From positions 1 to 24,982 of IMG/VR virus record IMGVR_UViG_3300022841_000477: a stretch of DNA of 24,982 nt; one strand, given 5' to 3'. Below the pieces are notes generated by a model, which ran no database searches, was not told where the DNA came from, and saw only the letters and a list, made by a program, of their open reading frames with translations. Positions 9,842 through 24,913 of this stretch are shown here, piece by piece. The DNA comes from a virus. Lineage: Duplodnaviria > Caudoviricetes. The translations under genes were made by a program, and so were the position numbers. Every line of letters begins with the position of its first letter. The stretch's first letter is position 1.

Positions 9842-11317
9842 ATGACAACGATTACGGTAATAAAAAGAAGTGGAGCGAAAGAGCCATTGATGATCGAGAA
9901 GTGGCAGGCACAGATCGCAAAAGTATGTAAAGGTATTGCAGATGTCAGTCAGTCAATGATTGAGATTAAAGCGCAATTGCACTTTTACGATAACATAACA
10001 ACAGAAGAAATTGACGGTATCACATTACGTGCTATTGTTGACCTAATCGATGTAGAACAAAATCCCGATGTAGGACATACTAACTATCAATATGTAGCAG
10101 GTAAACAGCGGCTATCAATGTTGAGGAAGAATGTATATGAGTCATATGAAGTTCCCCACCTTTACGAAATTGTAAAGAAGAATGTTGCTGTTGGCCTGTA
10201 CACTAGTGAATTATTAGACTGGTACAGTCAAGACGAGTGGAACAAGATGGATGACATGCTGGATCATGAAAAAGATGAACAGTATGGATATGCAGCCATT
10301 GAACAGTTAATTGAAAAGTACTTGGTACGTAATCGTGCAACAAAGGAAATTTACGAAACTCCACAGATTAGATACATGGTTGCATCTGCTACGATTTTTC
10401 ACAAAGAAGAACCAAGCGGCGCACGTATGCGTTACATCAAAGAATATTACAATGCAGCTAGTGATGGACTCTTTACTCTTGCAACTCCGGTCTTGGCCGG
10501 TTTGGGCACTCCTACTAAGCAATTTAGTAGCTGTGTTCTTATTCGTAGCGATGATGACTTGGATAGTATTTTTGCATCTGGTGAGATGATGGCAAAGTAT
10601 GCTAGCAAACGTGCTGGCATTGGTTTAGAAATTGGACGTCTACGTTCATTAGGTGCCCCGATTCGTGGCGGGGAAATTCAACACACAGGCATGATACCGT
10701 TCTTAAAGAAATGGTTTGGTGATTTGCGTTCATGTTCACAAGGTGGAATTCGTAATGCTAGTGCTACAGTGTTTTATCCTATTTGGCATCATCAGTTTGA
10801 TGATCTTATTGTGCTTAAAAATAATCAAGGCACTGAAGAAACTCGAGTCCGACATATGGATTACGGAGTGGTTCTTTCTGCCTTCTTCTGGAGACGGTTC
10901 AAGAACAAAGAACAAATAACATTCTTTGACCCTAATGAAGTACCTGACTTGTATGAAGCGTTCTACAGAGATACCTCTTTGTTTGAAGAACTGTATGTCA
11001 AGTACGAAAAGCAGAAAGGTCTACGTAAAAAGACTATGAGTGCTGAAGAAGTGTTCAAGAGTGGTATTTTGAAGGAACGCACGGACACAGGTCGAATATA
11101 TCTTGTATTCATTGATAATGTAATGAACCAAGGGCCTTTCAATCCTGAATATCATGCGATTTATCAAAGTAACTTGTGTTGTGAGATTCTATTACCAACC
11201 AAATCATTCAAACGCCTGGATCCAACACGAAAGACAGTTCGTGTTAAAAAAGATAAGGTAGATGAGTTTATGAAAAACAAGTCTAATGATATAGTTAAGA
11301 TCAGAAAGATATCATAG
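9842..11317 (+). CDS. nrdA: Class Ia ribonucleotide reductase alpha subunit, N-terminal piece (NrdA-a)
   Basis: ATP cone (VIKRSG), TPVLAG...FSSCVL, SQGGIRNAS and SNLCCEI; ends in a 31-aa basic tail that is not RNR sequence. Confidence 0.95.
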   Translation: MTTITVIKRSGAKEPLMIEKWQAQIAKVCKGIADVSQSMIEIKAQLHFYDNITTEEIDGITLRAIVDLIDVEQNPDVGHTNYQYVAGKQRLSMLRKNVYESYEVPHLYEIVKKNVAVGLYTSELLDWYSQDEWNKMDDMLDHEKDEQYGYAAIEQLIEKYLVRNRATKEIYETPQIRYMVASATIFHKEEPSGARMRYIKEYYNAASDGLFTLATPVLAGLGTPTKQFSSCVLIRSDDDLDSIFASGEMMAKYASKRAGIGLEIGRLRSLGAPIRGGEIQHTGMIPFLKKWFGDLRSCSQGGIRNASATVFYPIWHHQFDDLIVLKNNQGTEETRVRHMDYGVVLSAFFWRRFKNKEQITFFDPNEVPDLYEAFYRDTSLFEELYVKYEKQKGLRKKTMSAEEVFKSGILKERTDTGRIYLVFIDNVMNQGPFNPEYHAIYQSNLCCEILLPTKSFKRLDPTRKTVRVKKDKVDEFMKNKSNDIVKIRKIS

Positions 11318-11326
11318 TTAAACGTG

Positions 11327-11370
11327 CCTAAAGTACATAGTAATGATAAATAACTACAATGTACTTTAGG
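11327..11370 (+). promoter_or_regulatory. RBS-sequestering hairpin with a late promoter in its loop
   Basis: CCTAAAGTACAT (11327-11338) / ATGTACTTTAGG (11359-11370) form 12 perfect bp; ATAAATA at 11346-11352; SD TAGGA lies in the 3' arm. Confidence 0.85.
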
Positions 11371-11378
11371 AATAATAA

Positions 11379-12110
11379 ATGACTTTTACACCCACGTGGC
11401 TAATGATTAAGAAACATAAAATTACTGGATTGAAATATCTTTGTAAAACTACCGGAAAAGACCCTATAAAATATCTAGGGTCTGGTACTTATTGGAAAAG
11501 GCATCTTAAAGAACACGGCACCGAAGTTGAAACAGTATGGTGTCAATTATTTGAGAACAAAGACCAGATATATCAATTTGCTATTAATTTTAGCAAAGAA
11601 AATAATATTGTAAATGCTAGGAACACAGACGGTGAAAGAATTTGGGCAAACCTAATTGAAGAAAACGGCATTGATGGTGGCGGCAATAAAAATCTTCCAA
11701 TGTCTGCTGAACAAAAAGCAAAACTAACAGATACTTGGGAAATTACTACTCCAACCGGCGAACATTTAATTTTAGAAAATATGTTAGAATTTTGTCGAAA
11801 TAATGGATTAAATGCTAGTGCAATGAGTGCTGTAGCAAGAGGCAATAGAGGACACTATAAAGGATATAAGTGTCGTAAACTTACTAACAACAGAAATGTT
11901 ATATATGAGTTTAAGGAAAAACAATATCTAACAGATAGTGAAAAAAGTAAAATAAACAGTGATGGCGTAAAAAAAGCAAAAAGAGCCAATGCTGACCCAA
12001 AAATAAAATATAATGATGTTACATATAACACATTAGTTGAGGCAATAGATGCAACTGGAATAAGTAGACATCTTTTGATAAAACATGGCAAACTTTTAAG
12101 AAATAACTAG
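11379..12110 (+). mobile_element. Free-standing GIY-YIG/Seg-like homing endonuclease gene inserted in nrdA
   Basis: PTWLMIKKHKITGLKYLCKT...YLGSG.YWKRH resembles the Seg-type N-terminal domain; C-terminal NUMOD-like DNA-binding modules; AT-rich. Confidence 0.8.
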
Positions 12111-12118
12111 GATGAACA

Positions 12119-13135
12119 ATGAACGCATTATATGAAGAGATAGAATGTCTACCGGAAGAACTAGATGACGAATACGAGTATTATGAAATTGATGAAGTCG
12201 AGGGCAGAGTGTCCCTGTGTACCTTGGGATCTATGAACTGGGGAGCGTTCCGGAACCCAGAGGATATGCGTAGAGCTTGTAGAATTCTACATCGTAGCCT
12301 AAATAACATTCTTGACTATCAAGACTTTTTGTCGATACAGAGTAAACTCAGTAACGATGAGATTCGCCCATTGGGCATTGGCATTACTAACCTAGCATAC
12401 TGGCATGCCAAGCGCAGCCTTAAGTACGGTGAGAAAGATGCACTGGCTGAGGTTAAGAGCTGGCAAGAGCACCAGTCATTCTACTTAACAGAAATGTCAG
12501 TTGAACTAGCTAAAGAGCGTGGTAAGTGTTTAGACAGCGACCATACTCGTTACGGTCAAGGAATATTTCCTTGGGAACTACGTGCTAAGGGCGTTAACGA
12601 GTTAACCGACTTTACTCCTGAATTAGATTGGGAAACGTTACGCAAAGAAATGTTAATCCACGGTGTGCGCAATGCTACCAATGGTGCAGTTGCTCCTGTT
12701 GAGTCTAGTTCAGTGGTTATCGACAGTACCAATGGTATTGAAATGCCAATGAGTTTAATTACCACTAAAGAATCAAAAGCAGGATCGTTTACGCAAGTTG
12801 CTCCCGAATATAACAAGTTGAAGAACAAGTATCAGCTGATGTGGGAGCAGAAAGACTGCGTTGGTTACATTAAGACAGCGGCTGTTATTGCGGCCTACAC
12901 TGACCAAAGTATTAGTACTAACACATTCTACAATCCAGCACACTTTCCAAATCGTAAAGTGCCAACTACATTAATTGCCAAGAACTTGATGCAGGCGCAT
13001 ATATGGGGCCTTAAGACCTTCTACTACAGTTTAATTAACAAAGCAGGCAGCAAGATGGCTGCAGACGATGCGCCTACTATGCTAGAACCAATTAACTTTG
13101 ATGACGAGGAAGATTGTTTATCTTGTAAGTTGTAA
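12119..13135 (+). CDS. nrdA: Class Ia ribonucleotide reductase alpha subunit, C-terminal piece (NrdA-b)
   Basis: Own SD (AGGA) and ATG; acidic leader, then GRVSLCTLGS, RPLGIG, APVESSS, DQSIS, LKTFYY and terminal CLSCKL. Confidence 0.95.
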   Translation: MNALYEEIECLPEELDDEYEYYEIDEVEGRVSLCTLGSMNWGAFRNPEDMRRACRILHRSLNNILDYQDFLSIQSKLSNDEIRPLGIGITNLAYWHAKRSLKYGEKDALAEVKSWQEHQSFYLTEMSVELAKERGKCLDSDHTRYGQGIFPWELRAKGVNELTDFTPELDWETLRKEMLIHGVRNATNGAVAPVESSSVVIDSTNGIEMPMSLITTKESKAGSFTQVAPEYNKLKNKYQLMWEQKDCVGYIKTAAVIAAYTDQSISTNTFYNPAHFPNRKVPTTLIAKNLMQAHIWGLKTFYYSLINKAGSKMAADDAPTMLEPINFDDEEDCLSCKL

Positions 13136-13178: not shown

Positions 13179-13256
13179 ATGAATATGATAAAATATTTTA
13201 GGAGTGGATGGATTCCAACTCTTGACACCGACTGGACAAACTATAATGGCTTATAA
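13179..13256 (+). CDS. Possible 25-aa peptide (MNMIKYFRSGWIPTLDTDWTNYNGL)
   Basis: SD AGGA upstream, candidate promoter TTGTAA (13123) 18 nt TATACT (13147), overlaps the SOD start. Confidence 0.3.
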   Translation: MNMIKYFRSGWIPTLDTDWTNYNGL

Positions 13257-13806
13257 TTTTATTAGAAATGTCCTCCTAGAAGGAAAAAAAGACAAATTGT
13301 TTCATTTGCCTTTGCCTTACAAACCTACAGATTTGGCACCTGTCAAGAGCAAAGAAACTCTTGACTATCACTACGGCACTTTGTATAAGGGCTATGTTGA
13401 TCGTTACAACAAAGGCGAAGGCGATGCTGATTTCAATGAAGCCGGCGCATTTCTGCACAACATATACTTTGGTCAATTACATGCACCACAAGGTGCTAAT
13501 AGACCTTACGATGCCAGTTTAGCGTTTATCGAACAGCATTATAAAACCTATGATGCATTCCGAGACCAAGTCGAAACTGTGGCCATGAAGATACAAGGTA
13601 GTGGATGGGTGTACTTGGCACAGGATGGCAAGATCAAAACTATTGTGAACCACGAAGTACGCAATGACATTGTGTTGTTGATTGATTGGTGGGAACATGC
13701 ATGGGCCCTGGACTATCAAGCAGACAAAAAGAAATACTTGCAGAACATCTGGAAGATAATAAACTGGAGAACAATAAATGTCGTACTCAGCCAAAGTAAC
13801 CAATAA
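13246..13806 (+). CDS. sod: Fe/Mn superoxide dismutase
   Basis: LPLPY, TLDYHY, LHNIYF, GSGWVYL and DWWEHAW metal-ligand motifs. Start taken at ATG 13246; the track start is GTG 13204. Confidence 0.9.
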   Translation: MAYNFIRNVLLEGKKDKLFHLPLPYKPTDLAPVKSKETLDYHYGTLYKGYVDRYNKGEGDADFNEAGAFLHNIYFGQLHAPQGANRPYDASLAFIEQHYKTYDAFRDQVETVAMKIQGSGWVYLAQDGKIKTIVNHEVRNDIVLLIDWWEHAWALDYQADKKKYLQNIWKIINWRTINVVLSQSNQ

Positions 13807-13839
13807 ATAAGCGGGTGCGCCAAGATGATAAATATTTGT

Positions 13840-14430
13840 ATGAAAAACAAGTATGGTAATTTTAAACAGTGTTTATTTTGTAAGAGTGAATTTGAAACTC
13901 GTCCACGATTTTTAGATTATTGTTCTCAGAAATGCAAAAACCCGTTGAACCGAGGAGAGTATGAACCATGGAACAAAGGTATCAAACTTACAGAAGAACA
14001 AAAAGCCAAACAGAATACAGAAGGATTAAAGAAAGGGTGGGGCTGGAATAAGGGATTGTCCAGTGAAACACAAAGTCTGAAATGGAAGGGCGAAAATAAT
14101 CCTAACTGGGAAGGTAAGACTAATAATCTAAGACTAAAAAATCCGCAAACTGATTTGTTAAAACTGTATCGAAGCAAAGTCAGGTACGCAACATATAGAA
14201 CCCTTAAAAAAATGAAACAGGCTGGAGAGCAGATACCAACTTGTGGGAAACATCCTACAGACTTGCAATTAGATCACATTATTTCTATAATGCAAGGGTT
14301 TAAGTTAGGAATAGATCCTATATTGTTAGGACAACGAAATAATATACAGTTTATAACGGGTGAAGAGAATCGTCGTAAATGGCATTTTGATCAACCGATG
14401 GAAGTAGTACAATCTATAATAGGAGATTAA
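13840..14430 (+). mobile_element. Free-standing HNH homing endonuclease-like gene
   Basis: N-terminal CxxC...CxxxC, NUMOD3-like PWNKG repeats, C-terminal LDHII...NIQFI...EN.RK. ATG 13840 follows TAAATA; the track start is 13825. Confidence 0.75.
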
Positions 14431-14431
14431 A

Positions 14432-14824
14432 ATGGCTTATTCAGCTGCTGTGGTGGACCATTATGAGAACCCCAGAAATGTAGGAACTCTTAATAAAAAA
14501 GATAGTGATGTAGGTTTTGGACTCGTCGGAGCACCGGCATGCGGTGACCTTTTACAGTTAAGTATTAAAGTTGATCCAGCGACAGATATTATAATTGATG
14601 CAAAGTTCAAGGCATATGGATGTGGCAGTGCAATTGCAAGTTCAAGCCTTGTAACAGAAATGATAAAAGGATTGACATTGGATCAAGCAAGCACTATTAA
14701 AAATAGTCAGATTGCAGAGGAGTTGGCGCTTCCGCCCGTAAAAATTCATTGCAGCATTTTGGCTGAAGATAGTCTTAAAGCAGCAATTTTAGATTACAAA
14801 ACAAAGCAATCAAGGCTGCGATAG
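14432..14824 (+). CDS. iscU: Fe-S cluster scaffold protein IscU
   Basis: DHYENPRNVG, GAPACGD, YGCGSAIASSS and LPPVKIHCS (HscA-binding LPPVK). Confidence 0.97.
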   Translation: MAYSAAVVDHYENPRNVGTLNKKDSDVGFGLVGAPACGDLLQLSIKVDPATDIIIDAKFKAYGCGSAIASSSLVTEMIKGLTLDQASTIKNSQIAEELALPPVKIHCSILAEDSLKAAILDYKTKQSRLR

Positions 14825-15151
14825 ATGATTACCGTAACCGAAACAGCAAGTAAACGAATTAGCCAGAATTTAGAACGCCGTGGCAAGGGTGTGGGTATTC
14901 GAATAGCAGTTAGAACTACTGGTTGCAGTGGATTGGCATATGTGTTAGAATATGTAGACAGCATCGAGTACGAGGAGGGTGTAACAAATTATGCTCAATC
15001 TAAGTTTGCTGTATTAATAAGCACCAAAGATGAACCCTACCTAAACGGAATAGTTGTGGATTGGGTACGCAATGGATTGAATGAGGGGTTTGAATTTACT
15101 AACCCCAACGAGCGTGACCGGTGTGGTTGCGGTGAAAGTTTTAGAGTATAA
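14825..15151 (+). CDS. iscA: A-type Fe-S carrier IscA
   Basis: TTGCSGLAY, GLNEGF.F.NPN and CGCGESF. Confidence 0.95.
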   Translation: MITVTETASKRISQNLERRGKGVGIRIAVRTTGCSGLAYVLEYVDSIEYEEGVTNYAQSKFAVLISTKDEPYLNGIVVDWVRNGLNEGFEFTNPNERDRCGCGESFRV

Positions 15152-15155
15152 AGTA

Positions 15156-15812
15156 ATGTTAGAAACAATATGTGATGTGATGTTAGATGCGTATAAACGC
15201 AATTGGATTACCAGCCGTGACGGCAACGTGAGTATTCGCCATCACGATAGAGACCACTTTTACATTACACCTAGTGGTGTCCGAAAGCAGACTCTGCAAC
15301 CTGATCAGTTTAAAAAGATTGGTATTGATAAAACTATACATAGTGGTCACGGTACTGCTGCCATTAACTATAGCTGGCAAGAGTTACCTTATACTGATAT
15401 TAGTAAGAACTTAACACCAAGCGGTGAGATTCCATTGCACTTTGGCTTACAAAAAGAAATGGGCCAACATGCGGGTGAAGTTCGAGTAGTTGTACATGTA
15501 CATCCTACTTACTGTATTGCAGCAATGCATGCTGGCATTAATTTAAGCACAGTTAGTGATGCGTTTCCAGAACTTAATCGCTATACTCGAGTTGCGCCTA
15601 ATGTAGGAGATGTTGCTCCTATCAGTCAGGAACTTGCAGATCAATGCCACTGGAATTTAGAACTAGATAAAGACGGTAATACTGCCTATGACATCGTAGG
15701 TATCAAAGGACACGGTGTTGTTGCTATTGACACAACACCATGGCGGGCGTATGAACATGTAGAGAGATTGGAACATATTTGCAAAATTGTGTTAGCAAGT
15801 GGAAAATATTAA
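15156..15812 (+). CDS. Class II aldolase/adducin family protein
   Basis: DGNVS, ITPSG, PSGEIPLH, VHVHP and GHGV. Start moved to ATG 15156. Confidence 0.9.
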   Translation: MLETICDVMLDAYKRNWITSRDGNVSIRHHDRDHFYITPSGVRKQTLQPDQFKKIGIDKTIHSGHGTAAINYSWQELPYTDISKNLTPSGEIPLHFGLQKEMGQHAGEVRVVVHVHPTYCIAAMHAGINLSTVSDAFPELNRYTRVAPNVGDVAPISQELADQCHWNLELDKDGNTAYDIVGIKGHGVVAIDTTPWRAYEHVERLEHICKIVLASGKY

Positions 15813-16415
15813 ATGCATCATATCCCTACTACTATCAGCGACCGCAACGCAAAACGATTTACTATGATGCTGCGCTGGGTAGCAGATACATTCTTTCTAA
15901 AACAGTACGGACACAGAGCAGTTGTACTAGAAACAGTAGCAGCCGTGCCTGGCATGGTTGCAGGAATGTGGACGCATCTTAAAAGTCTACGTCAGATGAA
16001 AACAGGATATGGTCCCAAGATTCGAATGTTGTTAGCTGAGGCAGAAAACGAACGTATGCACTTGATGACATTTATTGAAATCGTCAAACCTAATTGGTTT
16101 GAACGTATGTTGGTGCTTGTGGCGCAATTTGTTTTCTGGCATGTGTTCTTGTTCATCTATATATTCTTCCCCCGCACAGCACATAGGATTGTGGGCTATT
16201 TTGAAGAAGAAGCAGTGATCAGTTACACAGATTATCTGGCCCAGGTTGATTCCAATCCAGAGCTCAATGTGCCTGCACCACAATTAGCCATCGATTATTG
16301 GAATTTACCTGTTGACGCTAGACTTAGAGATGTTATAATAGCGGTAAGGGCCGATGAACAAGGACACAGCGAAGTGAACCATGCGTATGCTGACGATTAC
16401 GATACTAAAAAGTAA
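15813..16415 (+). CDS. aox: Alternative oxidase (ubiquinol oxidase, di-iron)
   Basis: LETVAAVPGMV, EAENERMHL, GYFEEEA and RADEQGH. Confidence 0.95.
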   Translation: MHHIPTTISDRNAKRFTMMLRWVADTFFLKQYGHRAVVLETVAAVPGMVAGMWTHLKSLRQMKTGYGPKIRMLLAEAENERMHLMTFIEIVKPNWFERMLVLVAQFVFWHVFLFIYIFFPRTAHRIVGYFEEEAVISYTDYLAQVDSNPELNVPAPQLAIDYWNLPVDARLRDVIIAVRADEQGHSEVNHAYADDYDTKK

Positions 16416-16433
16416 AACAAATTATTTGGAATA

Positions 16434-17186
16434 GTGCGAATGATATTTGAAGAAACAGTCACTGCTGTACATCACTGGAGTGATCGAACTTTCAGTTTAA
16501 GGACTACTAGAAACTCTGCATTTAGATTTAACGCTGGCGAATTTGTATTAATTGGTGTTATGCACGAAGGAAAACGTATTCGCAGAGCCTACAGTATGGT
16601 GAGTCCGCCTTGGAGTGAAGAACTAGAGTTTCTCAGTATTAAAATAGCCGATGGTGCATTGACCAGTCGATTGCAACATATCAAGATAGGCGATCAAGTC
16701 ATTATAGGTGACAAGCCTACTGGCACACTGCGAAATGATGCTTTACTCAAAGGCGGCGAACTATGGTTACTAGCCACTGGCACTGGTCTAGCACCGTTTA
16801 TGAGTCTGATTCAAGACTTGGAAACTTTGGAAACTTGGTCTCGGATTCATTTGGTACACAGCGTAAGAGATGCAGCAGATTTGGCATATCGCCGTGAGTT
16901 GCACACAGCATTCTTGGATCATCACAGATCCGGTGAGCTACATGCCACAATCAAAAGTCTGATGGATTATCAACCTGTGGTTACTGGTCAGGGCGATCCC
17001 AGAATCACGACTCAACTAAGTTCGGGTAAGTTGGCAATAGACCCTGCACAAGACAAAATCATGCTGTGCGGAAACATGGCTTTTAATAAAGAAATCATGC
17101 TGTGGTGTGAACAACAAGGTATGAAAGAAGGCAGTTTGCGTGACCCAGGGCAGTACATAATCGAACGAGCGTTCGTGGATACATAA
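16434..17186 (+). CDS. fpr: Ferredoxin(flavodoxin)-NADP+ reductase, bacterial Fpr type
   Basis: RAYSM, GALTSRL, KPTGTL, ATGTGLAPF, MLCG and terminal ERAFV. Confidence 0.92.
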   Translation: MRMIFEETVTAVHHWSDRTFSLRTTRNSAFRFNAGEFVLIGVMHEGKRIRRAYSMVSPPWSEELEFLSIKIADGALTSRLQHIKIGDQVIIGDKPTGTLRNDALLKGGELWLLATGTGLAPFMSLIQDLETLETWSRIHLVHSVRDAADLAYRRELHTAFLDHHRSGELHATIKSLMDYQPVVTGQGDPRITTQLSSGKLAIDPAQDKIMLCGNMAFNKEIMLWCEQQGMKEGSLRDPGQYIIERAFVDT

Positions 17187-17192
17187 TAAGAT

Positions 17193-17819
17193 ATGAATAT
17201 AGACCATTTATTAATCGCCGCTGACTGTGCCCTGCGCACACTGTTTTCAAAACCCTATGCTAGCAGATCGTCACCAACTTGCAAAGCCGATACTGCCGAA
17301 CTGACTGAAAAAGAAAACAATCACAGTGCAGCATTAATGCGAGTGAATCACGTAGGGGAAGTGTGCGCCCAAGCATTGTATAGTGGACAATGCCTAGCCA
17401 CTCAAGACTCTGCACTTAAAAACCTGTTTGAAAAAGCAGGTCGAGAAGAAGTAGATCACCTAGTATGGTGCCGGCAGAGATTAGACCAATTGGGAGGTAA
17501 GCCTAGCCTACTGAATCCTATTTGGTACATTGGAGCATTTGCAATGGGGTACGCAGCTGGTAAAATAGGCGGCGATGCTCAAAGTTTGGGATTTGTAGCA
17601 GAAACAGAAAGGCAAGTGGAACAGCATCTGGCAGATCACTTGTCGAAATTGCCTGTGAATGATCACGCTAGTCGAGTTATTATAACACAGATGAAACAAG
17701 ATGAAGCAGCACACGGCGCCGCAGCGGTACACGCTGGCGCTACAGAACTTCCTAAAAGTGCTAAATCTGTCATGAAAGCAGTTAGTAAGATTATGACTAC
17801 TGTCGCTTACAGAATATAA
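17193..17819 (+). CDS. coq7: Demethoxyubiquinone hydroxylase Coq7
   Basis: LMRVNHVGEVCAQALY, EE.DHL.WC, ETERQVEQHL and DEAAH. Confidence 0.95.
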   Translation: MNIDHLLIAADCALRTLFSKPYASRSSPTCKADTAELTEKENNHSAALMRVNHVGEVCAQALYSGQCLATQDSALKNLFEKAGREEVDHLVWCRQRLDQLGGKPSLLNPIWYIGAFAMGYAAGKIGGDAQSLGFVAETERQVEQHLADHLSKLPVNDHASRVIITQMKQDEAAHGAAAVHAGATELPKSAKSVMKAVSKIMTTVAYRI

Positions 17820-17920
17820 GTACAAACACTGAGATATGAATAAATACGCATTCAAATACTTAAAATAAACCATTGTTGTCGTGCAGTTATTGCACGGAAC
17901 CTATATACAGAAGATACAAT

Positions 17921-17983
17921 ATGAATGCAGACTTAGTTAAACTGATTTTTGGAAAACTCACTTGGGATGTTGACACAAGATGA
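17921..17983 (+). pseudogene. Probable N-terminal vestige of cytochrome bo3 ubiquinol oxidase subunit I (cyoB-like)
   Basis: 20-aa ORF MNADLVKLIFGKLTWDVDTR; LIFGKLTWD resembles the CyoB N-terminus (FGKLS/FGRLTW). It runs into the glyA promoter. Confidence 0.45.
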
Positions 17984-17998
17984 ATAAAAATGTATAAT
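17970..17998 (+). promoter_or_regulatory. Consensus sigma70 promoter of glyA
   Basis: TTGACA (17970-17975), 17 nt, TATAAT (17993-17998) with TG extension. Confidence 0.85.
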
Positions 17999-18035
17999 TA
18001 TATAGTGAGCAAGACATTATGAGAAAACAACTAAA

Positions 18036-19187
18036 ATGATTGATAAACGTATTTTAAGTATATTATCTGCAGAAGGCATTCGCCAAGCAGACACAGTTGA
18101 ACTGATTGCCAGTGAGAACTTTGCTAGTGATGAAGTGATGCAACTCTGTGGCAGTATCTTCACAAACAAGTATGCAGAAGGACTGCCAGGCAAGCGTTAT
18201 TACAATGGCTGCGATGAAGTAGACAAGGTAGAACTACTGGCTATTGAGTATGCCACCAAACTATTTAATTGTTCCTTTGCTAATGTTCAACCACACTCCG
18301 GTGCCAATGCTAACCTAGCAGTATTCAAGGCATTTCTAAAGCCAGGTGATGTTATTGTAGGTATGGACTTGGCCAGTGGTGGGCATTTAAGTCACGGTGC
18401 CAAAGTCAATGCCAGCGGCGCTTGGTTCAACTCACACAGTTACGGAGTCAATGAACAGGGACTAATTGATTACGATGCTGTGGCACAGTTGGTATGGGAC
18501 ACTCAACCTAAAATGGTGATTGCTGGCGCCAGTGCTTACAGTCAAGTGATTGACTGGGCCCGTTTTGAAGAGATTGCAGCCAGCGTGGGTGCTCTGCTGT
18601 TGGCAGACATTGCTCACTATTCAGGTCTAATCGCAGGCGGCGAGTATCCCAGCCCGTTCCCCCATGCTGACATTGTAACAACCACAACACACAAAGGACT
18701 GCGCGGCCCGCGTGGCGGCATGATTTTATGGAATGATCCCGACCACTCCAAACTGATCAACAGTGCTATTTTCCCAGGCACACAGGGCGGTCCATTGATG
18801 CACATCATTGCAGCCAAGGCACAGTGTTTCTACGAAGCATTGCAGCCAGAGTTTACGTTGTACGCCAAACGTATCCGTATCAATGCACATGCAATGGCAC
18901 AAACGTTTATGGATGCCGGTGTTGATATTGTGTCTGGTGGGACTCAGTGTCACATGATGACTATAGACTTGCGTAAAGAACAATACAGTGGACGCGAGTT
19001 TGCTGACTTGTTGGAAGCAAATGGTATCACTGCAAATAAAAACGGAGTGCCTGGCGACACAAGAAGCTTTGTTGAGACATCAGGTGTGCGTATTGGTGTA
19101 GCAGCAGAAACCACTCGCGGTCATGACGAAGCGTGGTTCAAAGAGCTGGCCAACAGAATGGTTAACATACTAAGGGATTCAAAATGA
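18036..19187 (+). CDS. glyA: Serine hydroxymethyltransferase
   Basis: LIASENF, NKYAEG.PGKRYY, VQPHSG, GGHLSHG, TTTTHK (PLP lysine) and FPGTQGGP. Confidence 0.97.
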   Translation: MIDKRILSILSAEGIRQADTVELIASENFASDEVMQLCGSIFTNKYAEGLPGKRYYNGCDEVDKVELLAIEYATKLFNCSFANVQPHSGANANLAVFKAFLKPGDVIVGMDLASGGHLSHGAKVNASGAWFNSHSYGVNEQGLIDYDAVAQLVWDTQPKMVIAGASAYSQVIDWARFEEIAASVGALLLADIAHYSGLIAGGEYPSPFPHADIVTTTTHKGLRGPRGGMILWNDPDHSKLINSAIFPGTQGGPLMHIIAAKAQCFYEALQPEFTLYAKRIRINAHAMAQTFMDAGVDIVSGGTQCHMMTIDLRKEQYSGREFADLLEANGITANKNGVPGDTRSFVETSGVRIGVAAETTRGHDEAWFKELANRMVNILRDSK

Positions 19188-23730: not shown

Positions 23731-23934
23731 ATGGCAACAGGTAAAGTAAAATGGTTTAATGAAACCAAGGGTTTTGGATTTATTACTCCAGACAACGGCG
23801 GTGAGGATGTATTTGCTCACTACACAGCTATTCAAACTTCAGGATTTAAAGTCCTGCAAGAGAACCAAGCTGTAACATATGACACAGTGCAAGGTGCCAA
23901 AGGCGCTCAAGCTGCAAATATTGTACCAGCGTAA
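23731..23934 (+). CDS. cspA: Cold-shock protein
   Basis: [15 protein letters not shown] (RNP1) and DVFAHY (RNP2). Confidence 0.97.
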
Positions 23935-23944
23935 GCTAGTACAG

Positions 23945-24266
23945 AAAGAATTGTTGTAATTCCTTCGACAAGGATGTGTTCAAGACGCCGGTTCGAATCC
24001 GGCCAGGTCCACCATAAGCAGTTTAAAACTCGTTACCAGACGATGAAACGTAACCAACTGGAAATGTAGAGATACATAGGAATACGCAAACTGCTTTTGA
24101 TGGGCCTGCTCTGGTAATCGATTGGGCAAATAGTTAGAGACGGCAACACGGTAGGCGATGACCGTTAATCAAGCAAATCAAAGTAAATGCAACAGCAATT
24201 ACAAATGAGGCCTACGCTCTAGCAGCGTAATCTCCGAGGCAACTATGCCTTGTCATCCAAACTAGT
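23945..24266 (+). ncRNA. ssrA: Circularly permuted (two-piece) tmRNA
   Basis: T-arm GCCGG-TTCGAAT-CCGGC (23987-24003) and CAGGTCC-ACCA (24004-24014) come before the 5' strand GGGCCTG (24102-24108), which pairs 7/7 including G3:U70. Tag frame 24189-24230 reads ATAITNEAYALAA*. Outer ends are approximate. Confidence 0.93.
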
Positions 24267-24268
24267 TT

Positions 24269-24293
24269 AAAAGGCTACTTCGGTAGCCTTTTT
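24269..24293 (+). terminator. Intrinsic terminator after the tmRNA
   Basis: AAAAGGCTAC-TTCG-GTAGCCTTTT plus T. Confidence 0.9.
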
Positions 24294-24318
24294 ATTTGCC
24301 TAAAATTACCAAAACCGA

Positions 24319-24347
24319 GTGACTAATTTTATACAACACTGTATAAT
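24319..24347 (+). promoter_or_regulatory. Sigma70-type promoter in front of the non-coding locus
   Basis: GTGACT (24319-24324), 17 nt, TATAAT (24342-24347) with TG extension. Confidence 0.65.
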
Positions 24348-24353
24348 AATTAC

Positions 24354-24825
24354 TTAAGGCAATAAAGGCGCACCTAGGCAAACTAGCGTGACATAAGGTT
24401 GGCGGGCCGGTTAATAATTCCGCTGGATAAGGTTCTGATGTGTGACCCAATGTCCAATTCTTTTCTTCACTCGAAAGACTTTTAAGCACTACCTCAAGCC
24501 TTGACTTGAGATGCCTATAAAACGCCAGTCCCTTGATTGTTCACGTTTGCTTAATCGGAAAAGGTTGCAGGAATTTATTAGCGCATCCATGACTGAAATT
24601 GGCACCGAGTCAGTCTTAAAAATCGTAGTAGGTGGGGTAAGGTACAGAGCCCAGAGATGTTAATTCCAAAATACCTACAGCCACCAGTGTGATTGAGCAA
24701 CTCAACAAACATGAATACGGCACTCATTATGTGGGTGCCGTATGACTTCACAATCTAACAAAACTTAAAACAATTAAAAGAAGAAAAATAATGCGAGCGA
24801 CAGCGTAGCATTGGTCTTTAGACCT
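24354..24825 (+). ncRNA. Candidate large structured non-coding RNA of unknown class
   Basis: Own promoter, no + strand ORF in the track, and many nested helices (see findings). Ends are approximate. Confidence 0.6.
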
Positions 24826-24884
24826 TTACTGATTTATACTGTAAACATCTTAAAATATATTAAGTCAAAATCTATTAGAACTAC

Positions 24885-24913
24885 TTGACTATTAGGATTA
24901 ATCAAGGTATAAT
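24885..24913 (+). promoter_or_regulatory. Sigma70-type promoter for the next gene
   Basis: TTGACT (24885-24890), 17 nt, TATAAT (24908-24913). Confidence 0.75.

Follow-up and report, generated by a model that had tools for sequence, protein, structure and literature searches.

Between a tmRNA and the next gene of an otherwise gene-dense phage record lies a stretch of about 470 nucleotides (positions 24354 to 24825), for which a preliminary description had proposed a large structured noncoding RNA. Is it an RNA gene, to which known RNAs is it related, and what might it do? The window, i.e., the whole stretch of DNA that was analyzed, is an entire virus record of 24,982 bases and was matched in salt-lake metagenome runs; its gene content points to a fragment of a large phage rich in auxiliary functions. 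The gene at 9842-13135 (+ strand), which from its sequence we take to encode a ribonucleotide reductase alpha-like protein, seemingly is split into two ORFs around a 243-aa ORF (11379-12110), an arrangement as with an intron or homing element; the insert gave no match in a Pfam search. An auxiliary metabolic gene cluster occupies positions 13204-19187 (+ strand), with alternative oxidase, COQ7, and class II aldolase recognized by Pfam, and with ORFs that are presumably SOD-, IscU/IscA-, ferredoxin-reductase-, and SHMT-like.

Homologues and Covariation

To collect homologues, IMG/VR, metagenomes, and GTDB were scanned for exact motifs, and the loci were then passed through an iterated profile, which filtered out the many chance loci produced by gapped search patterns. 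At least 248 of the 434 fetched loci matched the profile; they come from phage and metagenome contigs and represent at least 131 distinct homologues, of which at least 106 are near full length and at least 85 fall below 95% identity. The mean identity in the resulting set of 85 sequences is 62% (minimum 40%). The conserved core of about 370 nt corresponds to positions 24395 to about 24762 of the window, and its length varies between 343 and 496 nt with a median of 370. The GTDB scan gave three pattern matches, two of them real, both on short contigs of metagenome-assembled genomes (4.7 and 6.1 kb), and for this reason they were not counted as cellular genes. A blastn comparison of the window RNA, a subclade member, and two sister RNAs with 50,697 GenBank phage records yielded no real match. 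No account of the full-length RNA or its repeats was found in the literature covered; the per-motif discussion of PMC2864571 and the IMG/VR candidates (at most 151 nt) of PMC10690425 lie outside this scope and may hold fragments or comments.

Covariation was assessed by a G-test with APC correction against 20 tree-based null alignments, using custom code similar to R-scape. The underlying alignment was a sequence-only MAFFT alignment, in which a subclade of ten sequences is misregistered around 24600-24633. Seven column pairs covary among the 85 homologues at E<=0.05 (six Watson-Crick and one like-with-like), and 27 do so at E<=1 (16 Watson-Crick, six like-with-like, and five other). The folding signal of the single sequence is marginal (z of -1.8 on the + strand and +0.8 on the - strand). 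The overlapping ORFs are not conserved: an open, in-frame counterpart of the minus-strand ORF, whose conservation would have spoken against an RNA, exists in 13 of 85 homologues, and one of the 50-aa + strand ORF at 24511-24663, present where the preliminary description had seen none, in only 15 of 85. The region is a structured and well-conserved RNA gene, and the proposed large, multidomain phage RNA is supported by covariation and turns out to be pseudoknotted.

Several divergent forms were observed among the homologues, which we call class I. The central motif is altered in L651, most of the 5' domain is apparently absent in L181, which retains many AGGC repeats, and the twin repeats described below are lost in L150 and L336.

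Anatomy of the RNA

The elements of the RNA and of its surroundings, all on the + strand, are as follows.

24319..24347, +: sigma70-like promoter GTGACT-17-TATAAT, by consensus match; absent in some homologues
24354..24394, +: leader, in which AGGC occurs three times (24357, 24366, 24376) as a complement to the conserved ATGCCT of 24512-24517
24386-24391 with 24467-24472 (P4 loop), +: pseudoknot PK1; duplex energy -6.9 kcal/mol for own and -3.8 for swapped strands
24395..24554, +: 5' domain, P2-P7 closed by P5, a distant homologue of Polynucleobacter-1 (RF01718) by covariation and homology searches
24396-99/24513-16, +: P1, a possible helix that crosses P5; conserved, no covariation
24401-05/24420-24, +: P2
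24425-55, +: P3
24460-64/24473-77, +: P4
24482-88/24548-54, +: P5; -6.0 kcal/mol for own and -1.5 for swapped strands
24493-98/24505-10, +: P6
24521-47, +: P7
24583..24683, +: central pseudoknotted domain, by covariation and conservation
24583-88/24654-60, +: P8, crosses P10
24591-24615, +: P9 hairpin
24601..24606, +: A1 loop GGCACC, which can pair with B1 (24679-82) or B2 (24734-39)
24629-33/24673-77, +: P10, crosses P8
within 24583..24683, +: P11, GGGT/GCCC
24698..24709, +: repeat r1 (CAA-CTC-AACAAA), with no covarying partner strand in the RNA
24718..24740, +: A2:B2, the conserved core of a 13-bp hairpin between the repeats, by pairing in homologues
24751..24762, +: repeat r2 (CAA-TCT-AACAAA), where the conserved core ends
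24763..24789, +: A-rich spacer, by sequence
24790..24824, +: tail, folding into two hairpins that include a GA/GTA inner loop and the DNA mini-hairpin GCGACAGC (24797-24804); by prediction it functions as single-stranded DNA

Comparison with the helices first read from the single sequence shows which of them belong to the conserved fold. The CGG/CCG helix (P2; 0.96 paired), the GGA/TCC and GGTT/GACC helices, CTCAAG/CTTGAG (0.93 paired), the GACTGA/TCAGTC hairpin (best pair G=64), GTAGGT/ACCTAC (0.95 paired), and the terminal hairpins are all retained in homologues. The hairpin of 13 bp at 24715-24743 is retained in its core (0.96 paired), and a helix does lie inside GTAGGT/ACCTAC, formed by GGGT/GCCC (1.00 paired) rather than by TGGG/CCCA as had been proposed. 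Three other pairings were not confirmed by the comparison: the long interrupted stem 24375-24404/24523-24553 (0.52-0.67 paired, no covariation, and nearly equal duplex energies for own and swapped strands), the TTGAG/CTCAA hairpin at 24693 (0.29-0.93 paired per column), and GGTTGC/GCAACT (0.79 paired, no covariation). In place of the long stem, its segments 24386-24391 and 24548-24554 take part in PK1 and P5, respectively.

Many unpaired bases of the core are invariant. The central domain contains the near-invariant segments TTAAAA-TCGTAG and GGTAAGGTACAGAGCC, and its GTAG (24625-28) may pair with CTAC (24489-92), both being invariant. Four strands fit two pairing schemes, A1 with B1 or B2 and the hairpin arm A2 with B2 or B1, and all four pairings are 0.90-1.00 paired; A1:B2 is 1.00 paired in the 75 main-clade rows and complementary in the ten subclade rows. 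The complementarity of A1/A2 with B1/B2 is consistent with a possible strand-swap switch. Leaders contain on average 1.5 AGGC motifs compared to 0.29 in controls. A weak hint places the likely 3' end of the RNA at r2. A palindrome of the CCAAAA..TTTTGG type, located near the promoter before the -10 hexamer, recurs upstream of many class I cores (e.g., L083, L089, L097, and L098) and is possibly an operator.

Genomic Setting and Transcription Data

The candidate RNA is located between a permuted tmRNA of betaproteobacterial type and a downstream gene that, in the near-identical contig L003, runs on as a 179-aa protein clustering with a Redoxin-family protein. The two sigma70-like promoters described earlier, that of the RNA at 24319-24347 and that of the next gene at 24885-24913, are present and match the consensus at ten and 11 of 12 positions, respectively. 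Such a promoter is not a general feature of the family, as 18 of 77 homologues begin within 45 nt of a same-strand stop codon. An OxyR-type site was sought upstream of the peroxiredoxin gene, with no match. The two-piece tmRNA itself occupies positions 23903-24321 (+ strand) and has the tag ATAITNEAYALAA; most related contigs have a tmRNA-like stretch in the vicinity of the same gene. The adjacency of the RNA and the tmRNA, noted in the preliminary description, proved incidental: among 80 contigs fetched via a neighboring gene, only three carry the RNA at that place, all near-identical to the phage of the window, and the slot after the tmRNA is therefore variable. In another contig, the L343 homologue directly follows the 3' hairpin of a tmRNA, a further case at odds with a universal promoter of its own.

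The genes flanking class I RNAs differ widely and lie on either strand, with no partner gene among the neighbors, which indicates a free-standing accessory gene without a partner protein. The first downstream ORF, belonging to many different genes, is on the + strand in 53 of the 85 homologues, on the - strand in 24, and absent in eight. Class I RNAs reside among variable genes and not among replication genes.

Transcription data weigh neither way. In runs X15, X16, and X18, homologues cover positions 24345-24860 only, all in contigs flagged as probably DNA. Three X15 contigs from one study end at 24760-24761 and an X18 contig continues past this point, again with the flag of probable DNA; the tail is traversed by one high-depth contig from a run labeled RNA-Seq but flagged as probably DNA. 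In the true RNA runs X17, X19, and X20, no piece over the RNA was present among the matches listed.

Relationship to Polynucleobacter-1 and Sister Classes

The stretch had initially not been matched to any known RNA class. For the window itself this holds, since an Rfam search gave nothing over the stretch either at the gathering cut-off or at E<=10, the tmRNA being the sole match in the window, and the Polynucleobacter-1 model (RF01718) in particular gave no match at E<=10. It does not hold for the family, whose 5' third is distantly related to Polynucleobacter-1. The RF01718 model, 141 nt in length, yields full-length sub-threshold matches in six of 20 class I homologues (22-35.5 bits), the best of them in G009 (35.5 bits, E of 5.6e-7 genome-wide) against a gathering cut-off of 37; the model had no match in five further carriers.

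A weak second match of the class I profile in G009 revealed a different RNA with the same r1-hairpin-r2 end, hereafter class II. When this end was used for a scan, 120 loci were obtained, 116 of which are not class I, and seven of 16 tested loci match Polynucleobacter-1 above the cut-off in their 5' part. RF01718 corresponds to the 5' third of the class II RNA. The class I and class II profiles cross-match in the 5' domain and in the 3' module, and their joint alignment is collinear. The 5' domain of class I has the same order of helices as Polynucleobacter-1 and the same ACTAYCC..GGAYG and TTTG blocks, and bona fide Polynucleobacter-1 members share with class I the r1-hairpin-r2 end and the tail. 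In contrast, the central domain of class I differs in sequence from that of class II, and no tested class I member attains the 37-bit cut-off. The table row in PMC2864571 gives Polynucleobacter-1 a "y" for RNA and a "y" for cis-regulatory, with 16 sequences from Burkholderiales and fresh water or estuary; unlike this listed possible cis role, class I is not consistently 5' of a gene (53 downstream ORFs on the + strand, 24 on the - strand, and eight absent). Given the full-length matches below the cut-off, the profile cross-matches, and the collinear alignment, the window RNA works out, by sequence comparison, as a diverged full-length relative of Polynucleobacter-1 and not as a member by score. 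An orphan motif of 2010, regarded as a possible cis element, is recast as the front end of an RNA of about 400 nt common in giant phages.

Class II is far more common than class I in the same phages, with an estimated 1,500 or so IMG/VR stretches containing its core motif, and in five of six carrier contigs the two classes occur together, on the same strand. The class II RNA of L484 (15560-16100, + strand), like those of L435, L456, L488, and L503, is a full-length form of Polynucleobacter-1 of about 400 nt, and its leader in L484 contains tandem repeats of the TTAGGCGATCTAGGCACA type. A single conserved ORF, ending in VRVHGSHI-like residues, precedes many class II RNAs. In an apparent third class (L645, L646, L648, and L672), the r1-hairpin-r2 end and the tail recur together with a CACTA(A)CCCA..TGGATG block; one contig of 518 kb has two copies, L646 and L672. 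These third-class loci score at most 7.6 bits with model R1.

Twin Repeats at the 3' End

Both class I and class II RNAs end in two single-stranded repeats around a hairpin. In class I, the six bases after CTC in r1 are identical to the six bases after TCT in r2 in 82 of 85 homologues, with 12 variants of the repeat. On the class I tree, about 21 and 22 changes were counted for the two repeats separately and 22 jointly. At the four variable places of the repeat columns, identity is 0.96-0.99 within a sequence versus 0.35-0.59 between sequences, and the three bases preceding CTC and TCT also tend to match (0.84-0.92). The same holds for class II, sampled via an independent core motif: the repeats are identical in 85 of 86 sequences and show 11 variants, with eight of 94 rows left out for lack of CTC/TCT at the aligned place. 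On a 94-leaf class II tree, for which sequences were selected by the presence of the repeat, 39 repeat changes were counted.

No complement of the repeat was detected that could explain this co-change. Within 250 nt, 14 Watson-Crick matches were found compared to 17 for other variants; there was none in the three GOLLD RNAs of carriers, and none at any shared locus of six carrier contigs. Nor did a search of six contigs for enriched direct or inverted repeats reveal a partner of the 6-mer. Antiparallel pairing of r1 with r2 was rejected, own and swapped energies being about equal.

Rare variants affect the center of the repeats. The third base of r1 alone is changed in L155, L167, and L190, and the first base of r2 alone in L090 and L096, whereas CT became CA in both repeats of the class II RNA L771. 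These variants suggest a pairing register of NNA-CT-x-N6 against NNA-y-CT-N6, in which each side would have one bulge. The spacing of r1 and r2 is 47-74 nt, not in triplets and without a clear helical phase. Each of six carrier contigs has one class I copy and no tandem products. Such strict like-with-like covariation without a partner strand is unusual whichever explanation applies, be it a primer that grips its template, a parallel duplex occurring naturally, or a template jump; since the repeats must stay identical, paired mutations test the mechanism directly.

DNA-Type Hairpins Beyond the Core

The hairpin loops of the core are of RNA type (GNRA 42 and GNYA 2), and those in the 100 nt past r2 are of DNA type (GNA 33, GNYA 28, and GNRA 9, with GA/GAA inner loops, on the + strand); both counts are drawn from related sequences and are therefore not independent. 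DNA-type hairpins occur in 55 of 83 class I tails on the + strand and in three of 83 on the - strand, compared to 116 of 1721 post-stop controls, and 28 of 83 tails have no scored hairpins. In at least seven class I homologues, a convergent gene abuts the core. Immediately 3' of r2, class II RNAs have GCGN(N)AGC mini-hairpins in 72 of 102 cases on the + strand and 36 on the - strand; according to an excerpt of PMC13037366, such mini-hairpins are much more stable as DNA than as RNA and are present at the G4, St-1, and alpha3 origins. Overall, DNA-type hairpins are present on the + strand of 93 and on the - strand of 30 of the 102 class II tails.

A Putative Replication Preprimer and Its Alternatives

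Among the functions offered in the preliminary description (scaffold, sponge, ribozyme, or replication primer), a replication-primer RNA is the one favored. We tentatively propose, at somewhat short of an even chance, that this knotted RNA gene of about 370 nt, a relative of Polynucleobacter-1, is a putative ColE1-style preprimer that would prime phage replication. A ColE1-like preprimer is preferred because the RNA's own template strand, complementary to the repeats by construction, would be the simplest source of a complement for both of them. In the model, the gene would be transcribed, and r1 of the folded RNA would pair in the bulged register with the DNA template at the identical r2. This pairing would hold an R-loop, possibly gated by the A1:B1/A1:B2 swap, and the 3' end near r2 would serve as the primer. 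The tail of the displaced + strand would then fold into mini-hairpins and load a primase or helicase. Class I might thereby provide an accessory second origin beside the more common class II RNA.

The co-change of r1 and r2 in both classes, the absence of a nearby complement, the rare variants that fit the bulges, the DNA-type hairpins on the + strand past r2, the precedent of ColE1 RNA II, and the single class I copy in each of six carrier contigs, joined in five by a class II copy on the same strand, all support the preprimer. Several observations count against it. On its own, a hybrid of 11 bp that contains two bulges is weak; the invariant unpaired bases exceed the evident needs of a primer; the distribution of class I is accessory; 28 of 83 homologues have no scored tail, and a convergent gene abuts the core in at least seven; and cumulative skews of four contigs follow gene orientation, with no turn at class I loci. 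In four contigs, the divergence point of gene orientation is no more than about 10 kb away from the class II loci, a proximity that may be one inherited arrangement and says little on class I. No RNase_H-family gene was found in the five carriers (0/5), and hence the preprimer model needs a host or other nuclease.

The twin repeats could instead belong to an architecture built of RNA only, a scaffold or cage like GOLLD, ROOL, or OLE, where a short parallel duplex of like bases (A-A, G-G, C-C, and U-U) joins r1 to r2 within or between molecules and A1/B swaps link monomers. We consider this unlikely. The dense pseudoknots, the invariant loops, and the purine-rich repeats agree with it, and precedents are described in part of PMC12286853, namely a symmetric A-A helix in OLE and phage cages built of GOLLD or ROOL. 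GOLLD is also present in three of five carriers, and a short helix before both repeats lends slight support (-5.5 own versus -4.9 swapped). However, joint purine-pyrimidine swaps occur in the repeats, like-with-like pairs of purines and of pyrimidines being unequal in size, and the DNA-type tail would be left unexplained. The invariant single-stranded bases and the swappable strand sets A1/A2 with B1/B2 could equally belong to a self-processing ribozyme, freed from longer transcripts, whose core cuts or recombines the transcript by docking r1 and then r2 (or the AGGC repeats of the leader) in one site. The CTC of r1 and the TCT of r2 are each complementary to the invariant AGAG at 24646-49, with no covariation, and the 18 of 77 homologues without room for their own promoter fit release from a longer transcript. 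Yet the RNA contains no guide for the variable 6-mer, no Rfam ribozyme is matched, and the contigs examined, which are insensitive data in this respect, show no r1-r2 skip or back joints, which makes a ribozyme quite improbable in our estimate.

Identity of the repeats without an internal complement, as observed, is what a template jump requires: a reverse transcriptase or other polymerase would copy from r2 to r1 and jump back via the identical repeat, as in the repeat synthesis of DRT2-type defense RNAs and telomerase. The genomes speak against such a template, for which we see only a slim chance. RVT_1 is absent from five of five carriers, three of which are at least 90% complete, no reverse transcriptase or partner gene typical of a retron, DRT, or DGR is linked to the RNA, the spacing of 47-74 nt is not in triplets, and each contig has a single copy without tandem products. 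A protein sponge or decoy RNP, or DNA iterons, with the AGGC repeats of the leader and r1/r2 as sites of a host or phage protein, would account for the five-fold enrichment of AGGC in leaders, repeated motifs being typical of CsrB-like sponges. We regard it as very improbable, as the protein would have to switch its specificity a dozen or more times and still demand strict identity, at two sites offset by a register shift of 1 nt and spaced without a clear helical phase.

Extending the preprimer model to the sister classes, one may view this widespread superfamily of jumbo-phage RNAs (at least three classes, one of them with about 1,500 IMG/VR stretches) as putative cis-acting guide RNAs that locate their own gene. 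The folded core would offer its 12-nt repeat to the twin's template strand, change conformation through a strand swap, and prime replication without an initiator protein, and the Polynucleobacter-1 motif would be the first third of such RNAs. This broader proposal is possible and on balance rather doubtful. The family bears on the start of replication in large T4-related lake phages and on large phage RNAs such as GOLLD and ROOL, to which no function is known to be assigned; its two repeats, which must stay identical, make a sharp genetic handle.

Comparison with Known Systems

Like GOLLD and ROOL, the window RNA is large, pseudoknotted, and phage-borne, and is found in lake phages with many tRNAs; unlike them, it is not tied to tRNA islands. 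Its identity as either was ruled out by model searches. The GOLLD model (RF02032) had no match on this RNA, with positive controls at other loci of the same contigs (GOLLD occurs elsewhere in three of five carrier contigs); the ROOL model (RF03087) had no real match, and no positive control match either. Conversely, the class I profile and model miss GOLLD RNAs. Loci L210, L211, and L212 are GOLLD RNAs (192-215 bits) in three carrier phages, and those of L210 and L212 appear by eye to have a tRNA-like insert. Rfam models of group I introns, RNase P, and small ribozymes gave no match on the window.

By eye, ncRNA004 of phage PA5oct (MK797984, 246116-246734; L795, 517-1135, + strand) resembles the window RNA in an ACTAC..GGATG block and a GAGG..CCTC stem, and also in a 6-nt repeat around the last hairpin, the second copy of which lies at the annotated 3' end, with a GA/GAA tail beyond. 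This RNA is transcribed at 0.02-0.08% of phage reads, according to an excerpt of PMC7318152. It differs in having no CTC/TCT, and chance alone is expected to produce one 6-mer repeat. Neither Rfam, nor either profile, nor model R1 matches ncRNA004, which is therefore a lead only; no model matches PA5oct ncRNA002. Parts of the queried ncRNA004 stretch match four places in the PA5oct genome.

The preprimer model is compared with the ColE1 plasmid, where an upstream rG run pairs with a dC run of the template. The window RNA differs from ColE1 RNA II in having no sequence or Rfam similarity to it and no G-run anchor, and in belonging to a phage and not a plasmid; no counterpart of the antisense RNA I was seen at the window RNA. 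As described in parts of PMC5043065 and PMC6317783, RNA II is a structured preprimer of about 550 nt that forms a persistent hybrid. Similarly, the window RNA would be a large folded RNA with a predicted promoter, followed by predicted DNA-type hairpins on the non-template strand, and its same-sense repeat could anchor the RNA to the template.
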